From a virus (Duplodnaviria > Caudoviricetes), in IMG/VR virus record IMGVR_UViG_3300047160_036266, positions 64,001-128,000 of that record: a stretch of DNA of 64,000 nt; one strand, 5' to 3'. Both the position numbers and the translations under genes were made by a program. This document shows positions 12,658 through 63,829 of this stretch, piece after piece. The stretch's first letter is position 1; each line of letters begins with the position of its first letter. Under the pieces are notes generated by a model that worked only from the letters and a program-made list of their open reading frames with translations, did not search any database and was not told the origin of the DNA.

Positions 12658-13215
12658 TCAGCATGATACCAAATAGTCATACTCGGACAAAGAGACTTGC
12701 CCACTTCTTAGCGGTTTTTCGCGCGTTATACGCTTCCCCATCGACCGCTGCGCATTCCAAATTATTTGTTTACAGTAAGTACCAAACTTGGTGTCGAGCT
12801 TGAGTCGTTGACGGCGGGAAGGTCGGAGGGTCTTCGGAACGATATTCCTCATGATGAGTCTTAGCAGACGTTCTTGGTGCCGACCGAATTTCTGGCGGTT
12901 GGCCCCGTGCCTGGTCCTATTGTCCCACAAGTGTTGCAGTTCACCCAGGACGTGAACGAGGAAGGGATCAATGGCGAACTGCCTGCACACTTCCAAAGAG
13001 CGTTCGATATAAACCTGACGCTTGAAGTAGGAGCCGGCCCGGATGACCGAGAACAGTAGCTCCTGCTGGAAATCGTCTATGTCGTTCTGGTGATTGTTCT
13101 TGGTGTTCTTGCGGGAGAGTTGCCAGGCGGCGTAATAGCAAAGTTGACCAAAAGCCTTCTCCAGTTCCCTGAACTCTTCTTCAAGAATCGGGAACGTCTC
13201 CATTATTGTTTTCAT
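12658..13215 (-). CDS. sigma-70 region-2-like protein
   Basis: DIDDFQQELLFSVIRA resembles region 2.2; KFGTYCKQIIWNA resembles KFSTYATWWIRQA of region 2.3-2.4. Confidence 0.5.
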   Translation of the reverse strand: MKTIMETFPILEEEFRELEKAFGQLCYYAAWQLSRKNTKNNHQNDIDDFQQELLFSVIRAGSYFKRQVYIERSLEVCRQFAIDPFLVHVLGELQHLWDNRTRHGANRQKFGRHQERLLRLIMRNIVPKTLRPSRRQRLKLDTKFGTYCKQIIWNAQRSMGKRITREKPLRSGQVSLSEYDYLVSC

Positions 13216-33985: not shown

Positions 33986-34336
33986 TTAGCTGGTTGCTGA
34001 GTCTTCGGGAGGGGCCTTATCACCCGGCTGCGGCCCCGAACCATCCTGGGTACTTTTCGACAGCACATCCTTCCCTCCTTTGAGTATGTGGCTGGGATAG
34101 CTTATATAGCCGTCCATGCCCTCTTCTTGCTTCTTCTTCTCGTCGTACTCGAAGAAGGAGGAGTAGTTGTCGTTGATGATGACCTCCAGATCGTGGTGGT
34201 CGATGTAATAATCCTTGTATTTGCGGCGGTCCAGTGGGTCGTAGATGCGGAAGAACAACTGGCCGTCCACACCCCGGAGGAGGAAACCCTTGACGTGGTG
34301 GGCCGGCGTTTCATTGGGCTGGAGGGGTCTTGCCAT
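33986..34336 (-). CDS. hypothetical protein
   Basis: co-directional ORF. Confidence 0.55.
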   Translation of the reverse strand: MARPLQPNETPAHHVKGFLLRGVDGQLFFRIYDPLDRRKYKDYYIDHHDLEVIINDNYSSFFEYDEKKKQEEGMDGYISYPSHILKGGKDVLSKSTQDGSGPQPGDKAPPEDSATS

Positions 34337-35699
34337 GTGACATCACCTTTGGTTCGATTAGGGTTCCAGGCATGAAAATACCCATGTATTCACGCATGTC
34401 GTCGTAGATCGCCCGTAGCGTCCCCGTCATGGGATTCTTCTTGCACTCCTCAATGTGGACATCGCAGAAGTGGTGCCAGAAGAATGTGAAAAGCAGAAAA
34501 CCTGCCTCCGTCCAGTCATATTCCTCGAAGGCGGCGTTAATGCGCTTCTTAAAGTCCAGCCACTCATTCCAGACCGCCTCATTCTTGCCATCGTCAGTCT
34601 GCAAGTCCAAGAAACGCTTGGCGTTGCGCCACTTATTGACGCAGCGCTTGCCATATTCCATGACGACGGGGTTGATGCGGGCGTCGGACCCGACCTGGGG
34701 TTGTGCGGCCCAATAGCGGACGCCATCCGAAGTATGCTGGTCCATATACTTGCCAGGAGGGACGAAGTTGCCAGCCGTCTTGGAAATCTTCTTCCCTTTA
34801 TCGTCCAGAGCGTGCCCGCAGATCACTATGGTTCGCCACGGTATCTGGTCGTTGTGAAGGACGCTTTTGATGATTGTGAAGAGCGCCCAGGTGCGGATAA
34901 TGTCGTGCGCTTGGAAACGAACGTCGAAGATTGGGCATTTGAGAGTGAGTTCGTACTGGTTGGCCTCGTGCCAGGCTAGTTGCGGCGACAGGCTGGACGT
35001 GTGCCAGGTGTCAAAAACGATACCCGGCTCGCCGGGGATGGGGATGCCGTAGTTCCGTTCCCGGCTGATAGACCAGTCCGAATCGCACTGATCCAGCCAG
35101 GAGAGGAGGCGGCCCTTGTACATCTCCGGCTTCCAAACGATCTGGTCAATGGCGGCACGGATGCGGGGCAGGTTGTCGAGGACTTTGATGAACCAACCCT
35201 CACCCCGGCGAAGCTCGACCTTAGCACCACTGCGCTCGTAGCAACCGTCTTCGGTCAACTCATTTTGGGAGACGGAAACCTTGGTGAGCGGGCAGTAGTA
35301 GTATTCCCGCTCGGCCTTATACGCCTGGCCCTTGTCCACCAAGTCCTTGAAGGACAGTTCGGCCAGTTTGATGGCGAAGGGGCAGAAGGTGGTGTAGTGG
35401 TGCCAGGACCAGGCCATTGCCAGGCGCATGAAGAGAAGGTGGTAAGCGATGGACTCGTGGTAGGAAAAGTCAATGATCTTGTCCTGGTCGGTGATTCCAG
35501 CGGCCTGGGCGAGCTTTTCGGTGGGCAACCCGTTGTTGTCGTAGCAATAGGGGTAGACTAGGTATTCGCCCTTGATGTGGCGGTGGTAACGGGCAATGAA
35601 GTCCATTTGGGCGTAGCTGAAGACGTGCCCCATGTGGAGGTTGCCGCTAATCGTAGGCGGCGGACAGTCGATGAGAAAGCGTTTGTTCTTGTCGTGCAT
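34311..35699 (-). CDS. valS: minimal valyl-tRNA synthetase (462 aa, no CP1 editing domain, no coiled coil)
   Basis: PPPTISGNLHMGH, DNNGLPTE, DWSISRERNYGIPIP, FDTWHTSS, FQAHDIIRTW, KISKT, FFWHHFCDVHIE. Confidence 0.9.
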   Translation of the reverse strand: MHDKNKRFLIDCPPPTISGNLHMGHVFSYAQMDFIARYHRHIKGEYLVYPYCYDNNGLPTEKLAQAAGITDQDKIIDFSYHESIAYHLLFMRLAMAWSWHHYTTFCPFAIKLAELSFKDLVDKGQAYKAEREYYYCPLTKVSVSQNELTEDGCYERSGAKVELRRGEGWFIKVLDNLPRIRAAIDQIVWKPEMYKGRLLSWLDQCDSDWSISRERNYGIPIPGEPGIVFDTWHTSSLSPQLAWHEANQYELTLKCPIFDVRFQAHDIIRTWALFTIIKSVLHNDQIPWRTIVICGHALDDKGKKISKTAGNFVPPGKYMDQHTSDGVRYWAAQPQVGSDARINPVVMEYGKRCVNKWRNAKRFLDLQTDDGKNEAVWNEWLDFKKRINAAFEEYDWTEAGFLLFTFFWHHFCDVHIEECKKNPMTGTLRAIYDDMREYMGIFMPGTLIEPKVMSHGKTPPAQ

Positions 35700-35857
35700 G
35701 GTGGGTTTGTCCGGTGAGAGAGCGTGTGGAAACGACGGGGCCACGCTCCTCCACGGAGACGCAGCCCGAAGCCACGCCCACACGGACAACAAAACTAGCC
35801 GCAAGAACGGTCATGTAGGTATTATACGTCAGTGTCGCTCAAAACGCTACCCGAAAA

Positions 35858-35952
35858 TGCCCAGGGCGGGACTCGAACCCGCACGGGAGTTACCTCCCAC
35901 GGGATTTTAAGCCGACTTAAATCCCGTGTGTCTACCATTCCACCACCTGGGC
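35858..35952 (-). tRNA. tRNA-Leu(UAA) with 10-nt insertion in anticodon loop
   Basis: GCCCAGG/CCUGGGC acceptor, GGUA D-loop, long variable arm, UUCGAGU T-loop; anticodon loop is 17 nt UUUAAGUCGGCUUAAAA. Confidence 0.9.
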
Positions 35953-36813: not shown

Positions 36814-37638
36814 ATGGACTTCACCGAATTTCTGCTTGAGGCCAAGTTTGCCAAGATCATGAACGCCCTCCGGGGTGACGTGCCGCACGTCAACCAAATG
36901 GGCATCATGACCGCCCAGAATCCCTTGGGCGTAGAGGCCCCGGCCCAGCAGAACAACGCCGCCAACCGGGAGCTTCTGAAGGAGCTTCGTCGCGCCAACT
37001 TCCGGGGCTACCCGGTGAATCCCCGCTGGATAATGGGTAAGTTTGGAAATATCGAGGACAGCTACTTCATCCCGCATATCGACCGGAATACCCTCATCAC
37101 CTTGGGTGCCCGCTTCGGCCAGCGGTCGGTGATCTGGGGCCAGAAGATGCAGGACGAAGATGGCACCTACATTCGCTTCGAGTATATCGACACCCCGGCA
37201 GAGACATTGCCTCTGGACCCGTCCACCTACCAGACATCGCAAACGAGGGACGTGGTTCTGGCCGGCAAAGAGGCGGCTGAGCGCAGCGATTTGTTCTCGG
37301 CCAAACCCTTTCCCCGCAGCGGCATCGACAAGCGCACCGGCAGGCCGGCGACGGTTCGGAAGTTCGTCATTCCCTTCTTTGATCCCACCTACGAGAAGGC
37401 GAAATTCGCCCCTGACAAGGCCAGTGTCATGAAGCCGGTCGAGGATTCCGTGTCCGCCGAACCCTCGTTCTTATCTTCCGAATTGCCGGACACGCCCGAA
37501 GTCCGGCGGCTGGTCGAGGAGATTCGCAACCGGGAGGGCAGCTTGTATGCCCAGGGTAAGGTGCAACGCTGGTATTGGGAGAGTCGGGGGCTGCTGGAAG
37601 TGTCCCTTCAGAAGCTTCGTGAAGTTCTTAAAGGTTAA
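36814..37638 (+). CDS. hypothetical protein with DUF3293-like domain, probable virion protein
   Basis: N-terminus MDFTEFLLE; IMTAQNP...EDSYFI...FGQRSVIW. Confidence 0.6.
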   Translation: MDFTEFLLEAKFAKIMNALRGDVPHVNQMGIMTAQNPLGVEAPAQQNNAANRELLKELRRANFRGYPVNPRWIMGKFGNIEDSYFIPHIDRNTLITLGARFGQRSVIWGQKMQDEDGTYIRFEYIDTPAETLPLDPSTYQTSQTRDVVLAGKEAAERSDLFSAKPFPRSGIDKRTGRPATVRKFVIPFFDPTYEKAKFAPDKASVMKPVEDSVSAEPSFLSSELPDTPEVRRLVEEIRNREGSLYAQGKVQRWYWESRGLLEVSLQKLREVLKG

Positions 37639-38366
37639 TTGTTGGATGGGTCGAAGGTTTCCTCATCCTCGTCTTCATCCAGGCCCAGGTCTTCCCAGGG
37701 CACCGTTTCCAGTTCCCCGCTCTTGATCTTCTCGGTTGTCTCCTTCATCTCTTCGAGGAAGGCGGCGTTGTCTGCCGGCCCGCCCATGAAGGAAATATCG
37801 TCGTAGATTGCATCCAGCACGTCCAACAAGGTGAAGTCCCGTTCCCCCATGAAGATGAGCTTGGCCTTGCCGTCGCGCATCTTGGGGTCATAGATGCTGA
37901 CTTCCGTATTGAGCTTGACGGGCAGGTTGGCAAGTTCCCACATGGGGGAGTAGGAGACGCTGTAGCAGGTGAAGCCCTGTTCGTTGGGCTTGCCAATGCC
38001 GTGGAAGCCCGCTGACAGGTCGATGCTGTTCTTCTTCTTGTAGTTGTGGGTGCTGGCGTGCCAGTAGATTTCCAGGTGGTCCAGCGGTTCGGGGTCCGGC
38101 TCCATTTTGAGGACCATTTTGCGGGCGTCCTCGTGGAACTCGTCAATGTGCCGGCACCACGCATATTGCGAGATGAAGTCCTTCAGGTCAGGGAGCTTGG
38201 CCACCCCCTCGAAGATGTCCCGCAGCGTCACTCCTTCCTCGATCTCGCAGGAGCAGCGCAGCAGGGTCCAGATGTACCGAGGCCGGCGCTTTACATATTC
38301 ACGCGCGTCTCCGTCCCATTTGTAGGACCAAATGCCGTCCTTCTCGATTTTGGCATGTTCCGACAT
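37635..38366 (-). CDS. hypothetical protein
   Basis: long ORF with acidic tail. Confidence 0.7.
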   Translation of the reverse strand: MSEHAKIEKDGIWSYKWDGDAREYVKRRPRYIWTLLRCSCEIEEGVTLRDIFEGVAKLPDLKDFISQYAWCRHIDEFHEDARKMVLKMEPDPEPLDHLEIYWHASTHNYKKKNSIDLSAGFHGIGKPNEQGFTCYSVSYSPMWELANLPVKLNTEVSIYDPKMRDGKAKLIFMGERDFTLLDVLDAIYDDISFMGGPADNAAFLEEMKETTEKIKSGELETVPWEDLGLDEDEDEETFDPSNN

Positions 38367-38381
38367 AGCAGTTCCTTAATA

Positions 38382-38628
38382 GGTAGCACACTCCCGTAAG
38401 CAGGATTCTGTTCTATGCCATCATTTATCTCACAGGCCGTGGTGGGCCTGCGGCCTTGCGGCTGCACCTACCAGACCCGTTGCCCTGCTCACCGGCTGGG
38501 TCTATTTGGTTTGCACCCTCCGGGGTGGTAGCGATACTGAGCCTTGCGGCTGTTCTCTCCCCCGTTAAGCAGTGGTGTCCTGACTTTCCTCTATCCCTTG
38601 CGGGACAGCGATGGCTCGGAGCGCTACC
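38382..38628 (-). ncRNA. rnpB: RNase P RNA, minimal (reduced S-domain)
   Basis: minus strand: P1 GGUAGC/GCUACC; P2 GCCAUC/GAUGGC; P3 GCAA tetraloop; CR I GAGGAAAGUCAGGA; AAAUAG; CR IV AGAUAAAUGAU; CR V AACAGAAUCCUGCUUA with compensatory P4 pairing CAGGA/UCCUG. Confidence 0.92.
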
Positions 38629-38671
38629 TAGTTAGTGATTGTACCAGGGATTTGGCCGGTTGTAAAGCCCC

Positions 38672-41185
38672 TCAATCTTCTGAGCCGCCGTCCGTTCCTG
38701 GGTCAGCGTCCTCCGATCCGTCGTCGCTCCAGGTCACATCCGGCGAGTTCCAATCCCAATCATCTGCGTTTTGAAGCCGCAATCGACAGACATTTCCAAA
38801 AAGGAGACGCCGGCCAGAGTCGTCATGGGTAATAACCGACTGGCTAGGATTAGCCGTTACCACATAACGGAAACCTGTGGTTTGTTCCCAACAACCTTGC
38901 CTCACGACCTCCTGAATAATGTAGCGACCGGGCCGAACGTAGAATAGCAGATCGCCGTTCCTGTCCGTTTCGCCCACTATCCTGTCATTTGCCAGAATGC
39001 GCCATCCCGCCAGACCTTCCTCGTCAGGGTCCAGTTCCCCATTGCCATTACGGTCGTTGAACTTGTGAACCAGAATGGCCACCTTGATAGGTCCAGGCTC
39101 GGCACTATCATCGCCGCCGCCTCCTCCACTTAAATTTCTTGGCGGGCCAGTTATCACTGGCTCAAAGGGATTGTAGGGCGAAACCACAAAAGGAGGATTC
39201 TGATTGGGCAGATAAGGCAGGAGGGATATAATCGCGTAGAGTATCTTTATCTTTAGCAATGCTCGCAGAATGTCTCCCTCAAGTGCCAAGTCAGGGTTTT
39301 CACCTGGGGGTTTTTCGCCACCGTCTCCTGGGGGCTTACCACCGCCACCGCCACCGCCACCGCCACCGCCACCGCCACCACCACCACCGCCACCATTTTG
39401 GGGAATTACCACGGTTTGTTCGGTGATTCCTCCCTGGTCGTTAGTAGCGTGGTTATTGCTGTCGCCGTTATAGTGAACCGTCCATGTATATTTGCCGGGC
39501 ACCGATCCCAGGGTGAAGCCGATTGGGGTAGCATAGGTTCCATTGCCGTTGACCGTTACCGTCTCAGTGTCCACCGTATTACCGCCCGGCCCCGTCAGGG
39601 TGAAGGTGATTGTGCCAGTGGGCGAAAAACCGCCGGCCAGGATCGCTTTGTCAGTCAGGATGGCCGAGGCCGGCAGGGTCACTGTGTTGGGGCTGGCGTT
39701 CGTAACCAGCGTGGGGCTGTTTGGTGTAATCACTGCTCGCTCCTGTGCAGGATTACTGTCGCTGAGGCTGTTGTTGTTGCCGTCGCCGCTGTAGGTGGCG
39801 ACCCAGAGGTAGGTGCCAGCGCCCGCCCCTGTGAAGCCGATGGGCGTTGTATAAGTGCCATTCCCATTGACCGTGACCATCTCCGTGTCCACAGGCAGGA
39901 TTCCACCGTTGAGGAATAGTCTGAAGGTGATAGTCCCGGTGGGGTCGAATCCCCCGGCCAGGATTGCCTTGTCAGTTAGCACTGGAGCCGGCAAAGGGGC
40001 TGTGGCGGGGCTGGCGGCTGTGAACAAGTTCGGACTGGCCGGTGTAATGACAACCCGCTCCTGGGTGGGATTGTTGTCGATGGTTCCATTATTATTGGGA
40101 TCGCCGCTATAGGTAGCGACCCATTGATAAGTGCCGGCTCCTGTGGCTGCATTCAAGGTGAAACCGACAGGTGTGGTGTAGGTGCCGTTGCCAAGTACCG
40201 CAACCATTTCCGTGTCCACGGGCAGGATGCCGCCGTTGAAGAACAATCTAAAGGTGATGCTGCCGACCTCGAAGAAGCCGCCGCTCAGCGTAGCCGAGTC
40301 CTTCAGCACCGTGGGTGTGTTGCCCAGGGTGACGGCGCTTGGATTGGCGCTGGTGGTCAGTGTCGGATTCGCCGGACTTACGACGGTTTGTTCTGCGGTC
40401 CCTCCTTGGTCGTTGGCGGGACTGTTTGCGCTATCGCCGCTGTAGTGAACTGACCATGTATAGGTGCCGGCCACTGATCCGGTGATGGATATATTGGTGC
40501 TGGCGCTGTAGGTGCCGTTACCGTTGACCGTTTCGGTCTGGGTGGACGAGAAACCGCCTGGGCCGTTCAACGTGAAGACGATGGTGCCTCCAGGGGAGTT
40601 GCCGCCGGACAGCACTGCCGTGTCGCTTAGTGATGCTATGCTCATCCCCAGCGTGATGGCGTTGCTGGCGGTGGTTATGAGCGTGGGTTGGACCACCGCC
40701 AGAACCTTGAAATTGTCCGTCTTGCTGTTGTTATTTTCAAAACCGAAATTGCTGTGAGGATCACCCGGATTATAGTCCGCCACCGGCGTCAGCCACACCT
40801 TGTAATTCCCCCCTGGGTTGGGCGTGGTGCTAAAGGGGAAAAGACCCACCGTTATGCCGCCGAAGACCGAGACGCCGATAGCGTGCGTCGTGCCGAGGTA
40901 AGCGTCGAAAACGCCCGCTGCTGAAACATGGGCCTCACGCTCGGTGATCGGGTCGGTGGAAAGTAGAGTGGAGCCGTTCGGGTCGGTGACTTGAAAAAAA
41001 TAGTCGCCGCTTGGGGTGTTGCCCTGGTTGCTATTGCCGACCCGGATATAAACGTCCGACTTGTTGGCGAAGTTGTTGCCGTTGATCGTTGACCCATCCA
41101 CGGTGGTGGCAAACACATTACCAGCAAAAGAGGGGCAACATCTATCTTCTAACTGCTCAAGCCTTGGGCGGAAGGTATTTCGCAT
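38672..41185 (-). CDS. Planctomycete-type extracellular protein with tandem Ig-like repeats, poly-Gly linker and SdrD-B-like C-terminal domain
   Basis: N-terminal RPRLEQLEDR motif; about four repeats of TDKAILAGGF.PTGTITF.L...VDTE.VTVNGNGTY.TP.GFT...GTY.WVATYSGD.NN; KFNDRNGNGELDPDEEGLAGWRI. Confidence 0.8.
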   Translation of the reverse strand: MRNTFRPRLEQLEDRCCPSFAGNVFATTVDGSTINGNNFANKSDVYIRVGNSNQGNTPSGDYFFQVTDPNGSTLLSTDPITEREAHVSAAGVFDAYLGTTHAIGVSVFGGITVGLFPFSTTPNPGGNYKVWLTPVADYNPGDPHSNFGFENNNSKTDNFKVLAVVQPTLITTASNAITLGMSIASLSDTAVLSGGNSPGGTIVFTLNGPGGFSSTQTETVNGNGTYSASTNISITGSVAGTYTWSVHYSGDSANSPANDQGGTAEQTVVSPANPTLTTSANPSAVTLGNTPTVLKDSATLSGGFFEVGSITFRLFFNGGILPVDTEMVAVLGNGTYTTPVGFTLNAATGAGTYQWVATYSGDPNNNGTIDNNPTQERVVITPASPNLFTAASPATAPLPAPVLTDKAILAGGFDPTGTITFRLFLNGGILPVDTEMVTVNGNGTYTTPIGFTGAGAGTYLWVATYSGDGNNNSLSDSNPAQERAVITPNSPTLVTNASPNTVTLPASAILTDKAILAGGFSPTGTITFTLTGPGGNTVDTETVTVNGNGTYATPIGFTLGSVPGKYTWTVHYNGDSNNHATNDQGGITEQTVVIPQNGGGGGGGGGGGGGGGGGGGKPPGDGGEKPPGENPDLALEGDILRALLKIKILYAIISLLPYLPNQNPPFVVSPYNPFEPVITGPPRNLSGGGGGDDSAEPGPIKVAILVHKFNDRNGNGELDPDEEGLAGWRILANDRIVGETDRNGDLLFYVRPGRYIIQEVVRQGCWEQTTGFRYVVTANPSQSVITHDDSGRRLLFGNVCRLRLQNADDWDWNSPDVTWSDDGSEDADPGTDGGSED
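39340..39395. repeat. (CCA/CCG)n trinucleotide tract encoding poly-glycine
   Basis: accaccgccaccgccaccgcc... run. Confidence 0.9.
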
Positions 41186-41221
41186 ACCATATAAATTGTC
41201 CTCGTGTTGAAATTCTTTTAG

Positions 41222-41305
41222 TGCCCCCGCCAGGACTCGAACCCGGACTCCCGTTACAGGAACTTGGGCCTAAGCCAAGCGCGTCTACCCTTTCGCCACG
41301 GGGGC
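41222..41305 (-). tRNA. tRNA-Leu(UAG)
   Basis: GCCCCCG acceptor, CUUGG-CUUAGGC-CCAAG anticodon arm, long variable arm, GGUUCGAGUCC. Confidence 0.95.
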
Positions 41306-56101: not shown

Positions 56102-56537
56102 GGATGAACTCCTTGAGGATGCGGATTCCGTTCCATGTCTGTTCCTGTTCTTTCCGTTTGGACTCTTCGATCTGTTCGGCTGTCACCCAGGGGGCGTAAC
56201 AGGCGATGTAGAAGGTCCGGGGCCACTTGGTCTGGTCGTCACCGGGGTGGTTGGCGAGCATCCTTTTTATTTCCGCCATCAGGTCGGGCGGACACAAGCG
56301 GATGAACTCCTCCATCTCATCCCGAATGGCGAGCCGGCAGACGTAGTTCCCAAACTCAGTCTTGGTAATGTCGCCCCGGTTGTAAACATCGACAGCGTGG
56401 ATCATGTGCGGTTTGGCACGCTTCGGACGGGACGCTTCCAGGTCTTTCCACCACTGGATTTGCTCCTCCCGGCTCAGCGCGTCCCACTCCTCTGGCGAAA
56501 TCTCATTGGGACGCCAGATCAGTCGTTCCTTGGTCAT
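56088..56537 (-). CDS. hypothetical protein
   Basis: GGAG RBS before ATG 56537. Confidence 0.55.
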   Translation of the reverse strand: MTKERLIWRPNEISPEEWDALSREEQIQWWKDLEASRPKRAKPHMIHAVDVYNRGDITKTEFGNYVCRLAIRDEMEEFIRLCPPDLMAEIKRMLANHPGDDQTKWPRTFYIACYAPWVTAEQIEESKRKEQEQTWNGIRILKEFIHVDA

Positions 56538-57213
56538 CGCAGCACTCCTTGGAGAGTTTGCCAGAGCCGCAAAGGCATTGCTCGTCTGGTTTTGCGTCGT
56601 TCCAGGCGTCCTCGTCCCAATCCGCCACGTCGATCTGGTGCCGTTCGGTCGGCCCGATCCACAGGTGGACGCCTTTCTTGCCGTCGTTGACGTGCATCCA
56701 CATTGTACACGCATCCATCCGCTCCATGTGGAGAATGCACTTGCCCTGGAATTTGAAAAACAGTTCATCGAAGATGCCGTCGTCGCCGGCCCAGCCCTCG
56801 CAGATGGTCCACGGGCCGCAGAGGTAATCGTGGTCGCCGTCCTTCTCCAACTTCGCTTTGCGGGCCTGCATGATCTCGGCGTAGGTGAACTTGGCGTCTA
56901 CCATCGCCTGTTCTTCTTGGGTCCATTCCTCTTCGATGTCCCAAACGACGCCGGAGGGAGTGACATCGAGGGGGCGGAAGTGAATGACAAGGCGGCGCAG
57001 GGTTCCCGGCTCGTAGAGCGCCATCCAGATAACGTGGTCATCCAGGCGTTCCAGGTGGATGAGGCATTCGTCGTTCTTGCACAGGACCACTTCATCCAGG
57101 TCTTCGTCGTCCTGCGGCTCAAAGCGCAGTTCAATCTCCCCGATCCACTCCTGGCGGTAGCGGTGGGTGCGGCCTCCGACTTGGTATTCGTGGTAGTGGT
57201 AGTTGGTATTCAC
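56503..57213 (-). CDS. hypothetical protein with SEC-C-like C-terminus
   Basis: CLCGSGKLSKECC. Confidence 0.6.
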   Translation of the reverse strand: MNTNYHYHEYQVGGRTHRYRQEWIGEIELRFEPQDDEDLDEVVLCKNDECLIHLERLDDHVIWMALYEPGTLRRLVIHFRPLDVTPSGVVWDIEEEWTQEEQAMVDAKFTYAEIMQARKAKLEKDGDHDYLCGPWTICEGWAGDDGIFDELFFKFQGKCILHMERMDACTMWMHVNDGKKGVHLWIGPTERHQIDVADWDEDAWNDAKPDEQCLCGSGKLSKECCDDQGTTDLASQ

Positions 57214-63443: not shown

Positions 63444-63743
63444 CTACCAAAACGGGTCGCTGTCGGGCTTGCACTCCTCAAAGCCGCCTTCCTTGTCAAA
63501 CATCCGTTCCCACAAGGTCGCGTCCCGATATAGTTCGATGGTCCGGGCTGAACTGCAACAGTCGTGGTAATCATAAGGGTCTTGCTCGTGCAATTCGAGG
63601 TAGGTTGCCTTGTCCTCGAAGAGAATATGCGTGAGCGTCACTCGGTCCTGGCCGAAGCGGCTGACCTTCTGGCCCCGGAAGGCCACGATATTCATGCCGA
63701 TCAGGTCGGTCCACTTCGGAATGCTGGACTTTTTCTTTGCCAT
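63444..63743 (-). CDS. hypothetical protein
   Basis: GGAGGG RBS overlapping tRNA 3' flank. Confidence 0.6.
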   Translation of the reverse strand: MAKKKSSIPKWTDLIGMNIVAFRGQKVSRFGQDRVTLTHILFEDKATYLELHEQDPYDYHDCCSSARTIELYRDATLWERMFDKEGGFEECKPDSDPFW

Positions 63744-63755
63744 AATTCCCTCCAG

Positions 63756-63829
63756 TGGCACGGGCCGGACCTGCCCCGGCAGCATCACTGATTTTAAGTC
63801 GGTGTGGTCTTCTTCTTGCCTACCGTGCC
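63756..63829 (-). tRNA. non-canonical 74-nt tRNA, anticodon UAA (Leu codon UUA)
   Basis: GGCACGG/CCGUGCC-A; CACCGA-CUUAAAA-UCAGUG; GCCGG-GGCAGGU-CCGGC. Confidence 0.78.

Follow-up and report, generated by a model that had tools for sequence, protein, structure and literature searches.

The stretch of DNA considered here, referred to as the window, comprises 64,000 nucleotides (positions 64,001 to 128,000) of the IMG/VR virus record IMGVR_UViG_3300047160_036266. This record, which carries the label 'provirus', is that of a giant T4-like soil phage of 343,421 bp and is estimated to be 69% complete. It encodes a T4 Gp23-type capsid protein (294 bits) and a gp20-type portal protein (254 bits), in agreement with the initial annotation, which had described the small RNA at the center of this study as phage-encoded. 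The genes around this RNA are those for a gp32-like protein, a RecD-like helicase, a DEAD-box helicase, an HNH endonuclease and a shortened class I synthetase. The features referred to below, in window coordinates unless the record is named, are the following.

34311-35804, minus strand: gene for a 497-aa class I synthetase, beside the tRNA-Leu genes
35858..35952, minus strand: tRNA-Leu(AAG), whose first base follows the TAA of the gp32-like gene (35952/35953)
37635-38366, minus strand: orf243, directly downstream of the RNA, with a ribosome-binding site 5-12 nt past the RNA 3' end
38382-38628, minus strand: mini RNase P RNA, predicted P1-to-P1 gene, 247 nt
38384..38629, minus strand: mini RNase P RNA with the ends given by an RNA-level joint in run X15, 246 nt
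38638..38666, minus strand: sigma-70-like promoter from a consensus scan, TTTACA-17-TACAAT with a TG extension
38672-41185, minus strand: gene for a Big_3_5 (bacterial Ig-like) protein of 837 aa, which separates tRNA-Leu(UAG) from the RNase P RNA
41221..41305, minus strand: tRNA-Leu(UAG), upstream of the RNA, whose first base follows the TAA of the RecD-like helicase gene (41305/41306)
Record 12849-13200: tmRNA
Record 56243-56671 and 324743-325225: two genes of the CCA-adding/poly(A)-polymerase family
Record 193282-193968 and 329891-330409: two genes of the Rnl2 RNA ligase family

The order RecD-like helicase, tRNA-Leu(UAG), RNase P RNA and orf243 is shared by several viral contigs, and tRNA-Leu(UAG) is linked to the RNA in its relatives, lying 38 nt upstream of it in the related contig L009. 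Because the Big_3_5 gene is missing from this place in L009, it looks like an insertion. The orf243 gene is conserved in L009 and in four further contigs (L013, L002, L027 and L028), and its product matches no Pfam, PHROG or NCBIfam family. A role of this product as an RNA-binding cofactor is unlikely, as the protein, with a pI of 4.7, is acidic and bears an acidic tail, and as its gene and the RNA are not strictly linked: a homologue is present in L028, and the RNase P RNA is absent from the 29-kb fragment of that contig. The 497-aa synthetase finds its best matches in the ValRS and IleRS models, with 338 bits to the ValRS model, far under the cut-off of that model, and its editing insertion is seemingly missing; as a query on viral contigs it returned no related loci.

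At the curated gathering thresholds of Rfam, the window yields tRNAs alone and no RNase P RNA match. In a permissive cmscan of 38200-38800, positions 38379-38627 (minus strand) match RF00010 (RNaseP_bact_a) with 65.9 bits (E 7.8e-20), which is below the gathering threshold of 100 bits for this family. The alignment spans model positions 1-367 of 367 and skips about 105 positions of the specificity (S) domain, and it is the absence of these positions that keeps the score under the cut-off. The match is the single one to RF00010 in the whole 343,421-bp record (same locus, E 1e-20), and within the clan the RNA is matched best by the bacterial type A model, not by the archaeal type T model RF02357. 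The covariance models thus bear out the initial annotation in its description of a bacterial-type RNase P RNA. Our own model of the family, R1, scores 311 bits on the window RNA. An unconstrained fold has a minimum free energy of -101 kcal/mol (z = -3.4; none of 200 shuffles is equally stable), and this fold returns P1, P2, P3 and P15-P17 together with the helices of an S-domain stub. The individual elements are listed here, with RNA numbering that starts at window position 38628 (position 1).

P1: RNA 1-11/235-247, 38618..38628 with 38382-38394, minus strand; terminal pairs GGUAGC/GCUACC at 38628-38623 / 38387-38382, read from the sequence
P2: GCCAUC/GAUGGC, RNA 14-19/207-212, 38610..38615 with 38417-38422, minus strand
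P3: hairpin with GCAA loop, RNA 21-38, 38591..38608, minus strand
CR-I: GAGGAAAGUC, 38591-38582, minus strand, leading into P4, read from the sequence
CR-I with the P4 5' strand: 38578..38591, minus strand, pairing with 38398-38405 (UCCUGCUU)
P4: AAG-U-CAGGA/UCCUG-CUU with bulged U, RNA 43-51/224-231, minus strand
P5: CACC/GGUG, RNA 52-55/112-115, 38574..38577 with 38514-38517, minus strand
S-domain stub: 56 nt, 38518..38573, minus strand, containing the P6 5' strand, a P7-like helix, GAGAGAA, a hairpin and AGUAUCG
P6 pseudoknot: CUGCU/AGCAG, RNA 57-61/140-144, 38568-38572 with 38485-38489, minus strand
P7-like helix: RNA 65-69/104-108, 38560-38564 with 38521-38525, minus strand
Stub hairpin: 38539-38552, minus strand
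J5/15: CAAAUAG, RNA 121-127, 38502..38508, minus strand, invariant in the soil family
P15-P16-P17 arm, with the P6 3' strand and L15 GGU: 38466..38510, minus strand
P15: RNA 119-121/161-163; P16 and P17: RNA 127-155; minus strand
L15 GGU (CCA-binding): RNA 157-159, 38470-38472, minus strand, invariant in the soil family
P18-like double hairpin: RNA 164-195, 38434..38465, minus strand
J18/2, P2 3' strand and J2/4 core: GAGAUAAAUG...AUAGAACAGAA, RNA 198-223, 38406..38431, minus strand
ACAGAA: within 38416-38406, minus strand, read from the sequence

The catalytic-domain signatures that had been claimed for this RNA are all found on the minus strand where they had been placed, and P4 does read CAGGA/UCCUG instead of CCGGG/CCCGG. 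P4 with its bulged U lies between GAGGAAAGUC and ACAGAA..GCUUA, and the P16-P17 arm typical of type A, P6 and L15 GGU are all in place. The CAAAUAG segment includes the adenosine equivalent to E. coli A248, a residue that contacts position -1 of the substrate (PMC10465520).

The S domain had been described as collapsed, with about 45-50 nt left, and the distance between the P5 5' strand and CACCCCGGAG is indeed 46 nt, with about 105 model positions absent; however, the domain is not gone, as a conserved 56-nt stub remains. Of the P7-P14 region with CR-II and CR-III that characterizes RF00010, P8 and P10-P14 with both conserved regions were not detected in the window RNA. Within the stub, the P7-like helix encloses GAGAGAA, a hairpin of 4-5 bp and AGUAUCG; the motifs GGGAGAGAA and GUAUCG are conserved, and their likeness to CR-II and CR-III is merely loose. 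An ACUG/CAGU helix considered for the stub was dropped, as it is unsupported by the relative L031 and ACUGCU is better read as the P6 5' strand. The retained P6 pseudoknot and the structured stub are features that the initial annotation had missed.

Relatives were found by pattern scans, neighbor-gene searches and R1. Six further distinct soil-derived relatives are located on phage and metagenome contigs (L009, L002, L013, L031, L027 and L033). The RNAs of L009, L002 and L013 are 87-91% alike to the window RNA, that of L002 being identical to those of L019 and L020. L031 is a 2.6-kb contig binned in an Opitutaceae MAG, with an RNA that has no P18 and three tRNAs just downstream, and the RNA of L027 is likewise without P18 and has a larger stub hairpin. 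The RNA of L033 (276 nt, identical to L032) is found on two contigs, one of 65 kb and one of 436 kb, the latter also carrying a Gp23 gene. A blastn search of the window RNA against the INPHARED phages gave no match, and the copy in a cultured phage was reached via the conserved 27-mer of a marine relative and then the model: Stenotrophomonas phage DLP6 contains a 245-nt unannotated element (KU682439.2, ~105774-106018; R1 73 bits, E 1e-22) that ends 8 nt before a tRNA-Arg gene. In DLP6 and L031, a tRNA begins 8-11 nt past the RNase P RNA. In addition, seven elements of 147-166 nt that adjoin tRNA genes on marine viral contigs are alignable by R1, at 50-66 bits as compared with 120-308 bits for the soil relatives.

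Several candidates were set aside. The pattern match in L030 (Acidobacteriota MAG) is a chance match without a model hit, as are those in L003, L005, L006, L010-L012, L014, L016, L018, L021 and L023; in L004, L008, L015 and L022 the pattern matched other parts of AT-rich RNAs, with no R1 hit. A weak R1 match in the window itself (63703-63772, minus strand, 14.9 bits, E 0.006), near non-canonical 74-nt tRNA-like genes, is probably a chance hairpin match. It was also observed that two marine viral contigs, L037 (10556-10850) and L039 (2657-2954), carry a mini RNase P RNA together with a permuted (alpha-type, two-piece) tmRNA, the gene of which lies about 1.5 kb upstream.

The covariation alignment comprises 15 sequences from the soil family, DLP6 and the marine mini versions. 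In this alignment 97.4% of the cells are standard pairs and 43 of the 74 pairs are changed on both sides; none of 500 shuffles reaches the observed value, and slid controls are 31-44% paired. P1, P2, P3, P5 and P15 show 95-100% paired cells, and changes on both sides are seen for all 13 pairs of P1, five of six in P2 (100% paired), five of seven in P3, three of four in P5 and two of three in P15; P16 and P17 are also 95-100% paired with compensatory changes. P4 provides the cleanest test, because the alignment was fitted to nested helices and P4 lies outside the model, and here pairing is 100% with compensatory changes in six of eight pairs. For P6, covariation is uninformative because its strands, though complementary, are invariant. 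Among the relatives, GCCAUC/GAUGGC is exchanged for GCCUAC/GUAGGC in P2, CUGUCCC/GGGAUAG for CUGCGGC/GCCGUAG in P3, and A-U for G-C in P4, which reads CAGCC/GGCUG in L027. The P7-like helix of the stub covaries through four pair sets (CGGGG/CCCCG, CGAGG/CCUCG, CGUGG/CCACG and GGUG/CCAC). The P18-like double hairpin is present in the window group and L033 and missing from L031 and L027, and its second hairpin covaries as well (AGGCC/GGCCU vs AGGUC/GACCU). The core strands GAGAUAAAUG...AUAGAACAGAA are nearly invariant in all 15 phage sequences.

All 15 sequences also share the derived signatures GAGGAAAGUC(A/G)GGACAC and AUAGAACAGAAUCCUGCUUACGG, and these therefore speak for one phage lineage. 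The window RNA displays the features of this lineage throughout: the CAGGA/UCCUG-type P4, ..GACAC.., AUAGAACAGAAUCCUGCUUACGG, a small S domain, a phage genome and a tRNA neighborhood. The marine forms (147-166 nt) and the DLP6 form share GAGGAAAGUCAGGACAC, AUAGAACAGAAUCCUGCUUACGG, P1-P5 and P15 with it, whereas the soil subgroup of the window RNA is larger, has P6, P16-P17, the 56-nt S stub and often P18, and is not always placed directly before a tRNA. The size of the stub falls from about 100 nt in L027 to 56 nt in the window RNA and 2-3 nt in the marine forms. This pattern of shared signatures points to a single lineage of mini RNase P RNAs, specific to phages, in which the S domain was lost by degrees. 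Overall, the window RNA is a shortened RNase P RNA of bacterial type A and a real phage gene under selection, and it is very probably functional.

Reduction of the S domain is known from other systems, and the likenesses and differences are instructive. With E. coli M1 RNA and RF00010 in general, the phage RNA has in common the full-length model match, P1-P6, P15-P17, L15 GGU, GAGGAAAGUC, CAAAUAG, ACAGAA and the bulged U of P4; in contrast, it measures about 250 nt against 367 model positions, has CAGGA/UCCUG as its P4 and, unlike the cellular genes of this family, is encoded by a phage without rnpA. The archaeal type T RNA of Thermoproteaceae (Pyrobaculum) has a nearly absent S domain and cleaves naturally without it (Lai et al. 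2010, as cited in PMC7191817). The only feature common to the two is the reduction of the S domain, and the likeness is one of analogy: type T works with archaeal proteins, whereas the phage RNA has a bacterial sequence, with P15-P17, P6 and the GGU loop in place. The phage RNA is no member of type T, and the two reductions are convergent.

Among engineered bacterial RNase P RNAs, the minimized constructs include Min 1 and Micro P. The catalytic (C) domain of type A alone (Eco CP RPR) cleaves pre-tRNA, with reduced efficiency (PMC5839562). These engineered RNAs are laboratory deletions, whereas the phage RNA is a natural conserved gene with a covarying stub. Natural loss of S-domain helices is found in CPR bacteria, whose RNase P RNAs can be without P12-P14 and P18, and in Mycoplasma fermentans, which is without P12 (PMC8172020); like the phage RNA, such RNAs are detectable only under the Rfam thresholds. 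However, they retain more of the S domain, and each serves as the only, indispensable rnpB in a cell that also has rnpA, whereas the phage RNA is an accessory viral copy. The RNase P-like RNA of orthopoxviruses resembles the phage RNA in being virus-encoded and RNase P-like in secondary structure, and the camelpox version did not process pre-tRNA in vitro (PMC3001073); it comes from a eukaryotic virus, whereas the phage RNA has a complete bacterial catalytic core.

Short type A rnpB genes of 232-258 nt were also encountered on three contigs with cellular gene content (L017:13028-13285, L025:2330-2561 and L024:2571-2819). Their neighbors are metE, a TonB receptor and lppC-rsmI in L017 and ThiF and beta-lactamase in L025. 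These genes score 164-216 bits, over the Rfam cut-off, yet are without P10-P14, and they may represent either genuine cellular RNase P RNAs of reduced size or artefacts of assembly. With 34-47 bits against the phage model, they form a different sequence group.

The promoter upstream of the window RNA has 10 of 12 consensus matches and the TG extension (0.3 sites expected by chance), and 8 nt separate its -10 hexamer from the observed 5' end of the RNA. In L033, TTGACG-16-TATAAT stands immediately upstream of the RNA, and a terminator made up of a 13-bp stem and a U-run stands immediately downstream. RNA-level evidence comes from run X15, one small library labelled metatranscriptomic, the label being ambiguous and flagged 'RNA? 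(probably DNA)'. X15 covers 91% of the sampled words of the gene, as compared with 23% of those of the surrounding 2 kb. A search with these 2-kb surroundings as the query found no RNA library among the carriers, and the gene-only query returned X15 and X23, the latter with a small share. In X15, a 276-nt contig forms a closed 246-nt cycle in which 38384 is joined head to tail with 38629 (276 = 246 + k-1, with k = 31), and both ends at this joint fall 1-2 nt away from the termini of P1, which had been predicted independently. The depth is 16.8 on the RNA and 3.9-6.3 on the patchy flanks, whose uncovered parts do not count as evidence, and no contig links the gene to the flanks. DNA run X1 reads through 38397-38719, including the 5' boundary of the RNA, without the joint. 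In X23 (soil RNA-Seq), a 170-nt contig belongs to a relative with 10 differences. This is moderate evidence of a discrete, abundant 246-nt RNA. The head-to-tail joint could stem from a circular RNA, from a template switch of the reverse transcriptase or from a tandem DNA copy in a variant.

The phage record contains 12 tRNA genes (8 Leu, 2 Phe and 2 Ser) and the tmRNA, which has the tag AENDLRLAA. CCA is encoded in 0 of the 12 tRNA genes, and the conserved L15 GGU can therefore pair only after CCA addition. The two tRNAs in the operon of the RNase P RNA itself, tRNA-Leu(UAG) and tRNA-Leu(AAG), are canonical type II tRNAs. Their position at stop codons amounts to tRNA punctuation of mRNAs, and because both genes abut the upstream TAA stops, a precise RNase P cut is needed. 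tRNA-Leu(AAG) is a likely substrate of the mini RNase P RNA. The initial annotation had suggested, with a hedge, that the RNA may serve the atypical tRNAs in particular.

On this basis, the RNA is probably an active ribozyme that would borrow the RnpA of the host and mature the 5' ends of phage pre-tRNAs, with a relaxed dependence on the tRNA elbow. The consensus and the observed 5' end suggest transcription from its own sigma-70-like promoter, and the transcript would then be trimmed to the 246-nt RNA with its ends in P1, ends that were observed in the one library. Folding would give the complete catalytic domain, with P1-P5, the P4 and P6 pseudoknots, P15-P17 with the GGU loop and a variable P18; covariation backs this fold of the catalytic domain, and the S domain is the 56-nt stub only. 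During infection, the RNA would most likely be joined by host RnpA, which is the presumed partner because a phage rnpA was not found. The initial annotation had recognized no rnpA gene, and this now extends to the entire 343-kb record, in which RnpA (PF00825) is absent at E<=10, and to five related viral records, one of them 436 kb long; control genomes match. As the record is about 69% complete, the missing part could contain a phage rnpA or the gene for a different protein partner. The holoenzyme would be expected to cut the 5' leaders of phage tRNA precursors, including the tRNAs that abut stop codons in its own operon. Lacking the module that reads the elbow, it would depend on contacts to the acceptor stem, position -1 and the 3' end, and its selectivity for tRNA shape may be lower. 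In the 15-sequence alignment, the catalytic and substrate-contact elements are conserved beyond the needs of protein binding alone.

The cycle in X15 would lead one to consider that the ribozyme matures into a covalently closed circle of 246 nt, its P1 ends joined in vivo, for example by an Rnl2-family ligase of the phage. Such a circle would be exonuclease-resistant and would act as an elbow-independent processor of the unusual tRNA set of the phage, with host RnpA or with no protein; we regard this as rather unlikely. RtcB was rejected as the circularizing ligase, since its gene is absent from the record.

We consider it unlikely, too, that the ribozyme has been repurposed mainly for the processing of mRNAs or operons at tRNAs, at tRNA-like marks or on non-tRNA substrates, and is no general tRNA maturase. 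That in two tRNAs of the same operon the first base directly follows an upstream stop codon would suit such a role, and loss of the elbow module might favor a relaxed choice of substrate. However, cutting tRNAs of this kind is ordinary RNase P chemistry, so that the two readings differ in emphasis and not in mechanism, and the relatives are located in plain tRNA arrays.

Any RnpA that the RNA meets must be that of the host, given phages without rnpA, and the RNA might accordingly be a decoy that sequesters this protein or competes with host M1 RNA, halting tRNA maturation in the host without useful catalysis; the inactive orthopoxvirus RNA has been discussed as a possible decoy (PMC3001073). 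This is very unlikely, however, because the bulged U of P4, CAAAUAG, L15 GGU and J2/4 are kept in very divergent members and a sponge needs none of them, and the tRNAs of the phage itself also need 5' processing.

That the RNA is what remains of a host rnpB once captured by the phage, now decaying and functionless, is highly improbable, even though the score under the Rfam cut-off and the large internal deletion might be quoted in favor of it: 43 pairs are compensatory, the single-stranded core is invariant among members that are about 60-70% alike, and the gene is equipped with a promoter and a terminator of its own, with RNA detected. Finally, that a cellular rnpB on host DNA was misjoined or misbinned with phage DNA is scarcely credible, despite the 'provirus' label, the Opitutaceae bin of L031 and the short genes on the three cellular contigs, because the immediate neighbors are of phage type and syntenic in several viral contigs, capsid and portal genes stand on the same contig (which is no cellular chromosome with a known short rnpB class), the cultured and fully sequenced phage DLP6 has a copy, and the cellular short forms belong to the other sequence group noted above.

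RNase P RNA is regarded as a housekeeping ribozyme of cells and organelles that trims new tRNAs. A full-text literature search, with most subscription journals outside its coverage, found no paper describing a phage-encoded RNase P RNA, and because their scores fall under the Rfam cut-off, mini RNase P genes of phages go unannotated. To our knowledge, the minimal phage forms are smaller than any known cellular bacterial RNase P RNA. The lineage represents a natural deletion series of the S domain, with stubs of about 100 nt, 56 nt and 2-3 nt, and such a series is suited to asking what the S domain is for and how little RNA suffices together with RnpA. Since a cultured phage, DLP6, has a copy, the question is directly testable. 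With a conserved phage lineage that has its own RNase P RNA, viruses would bring along a tRNA-maturing catalyst beside the tRNAs, synthetases, CCA-adding enzymes and ligases.
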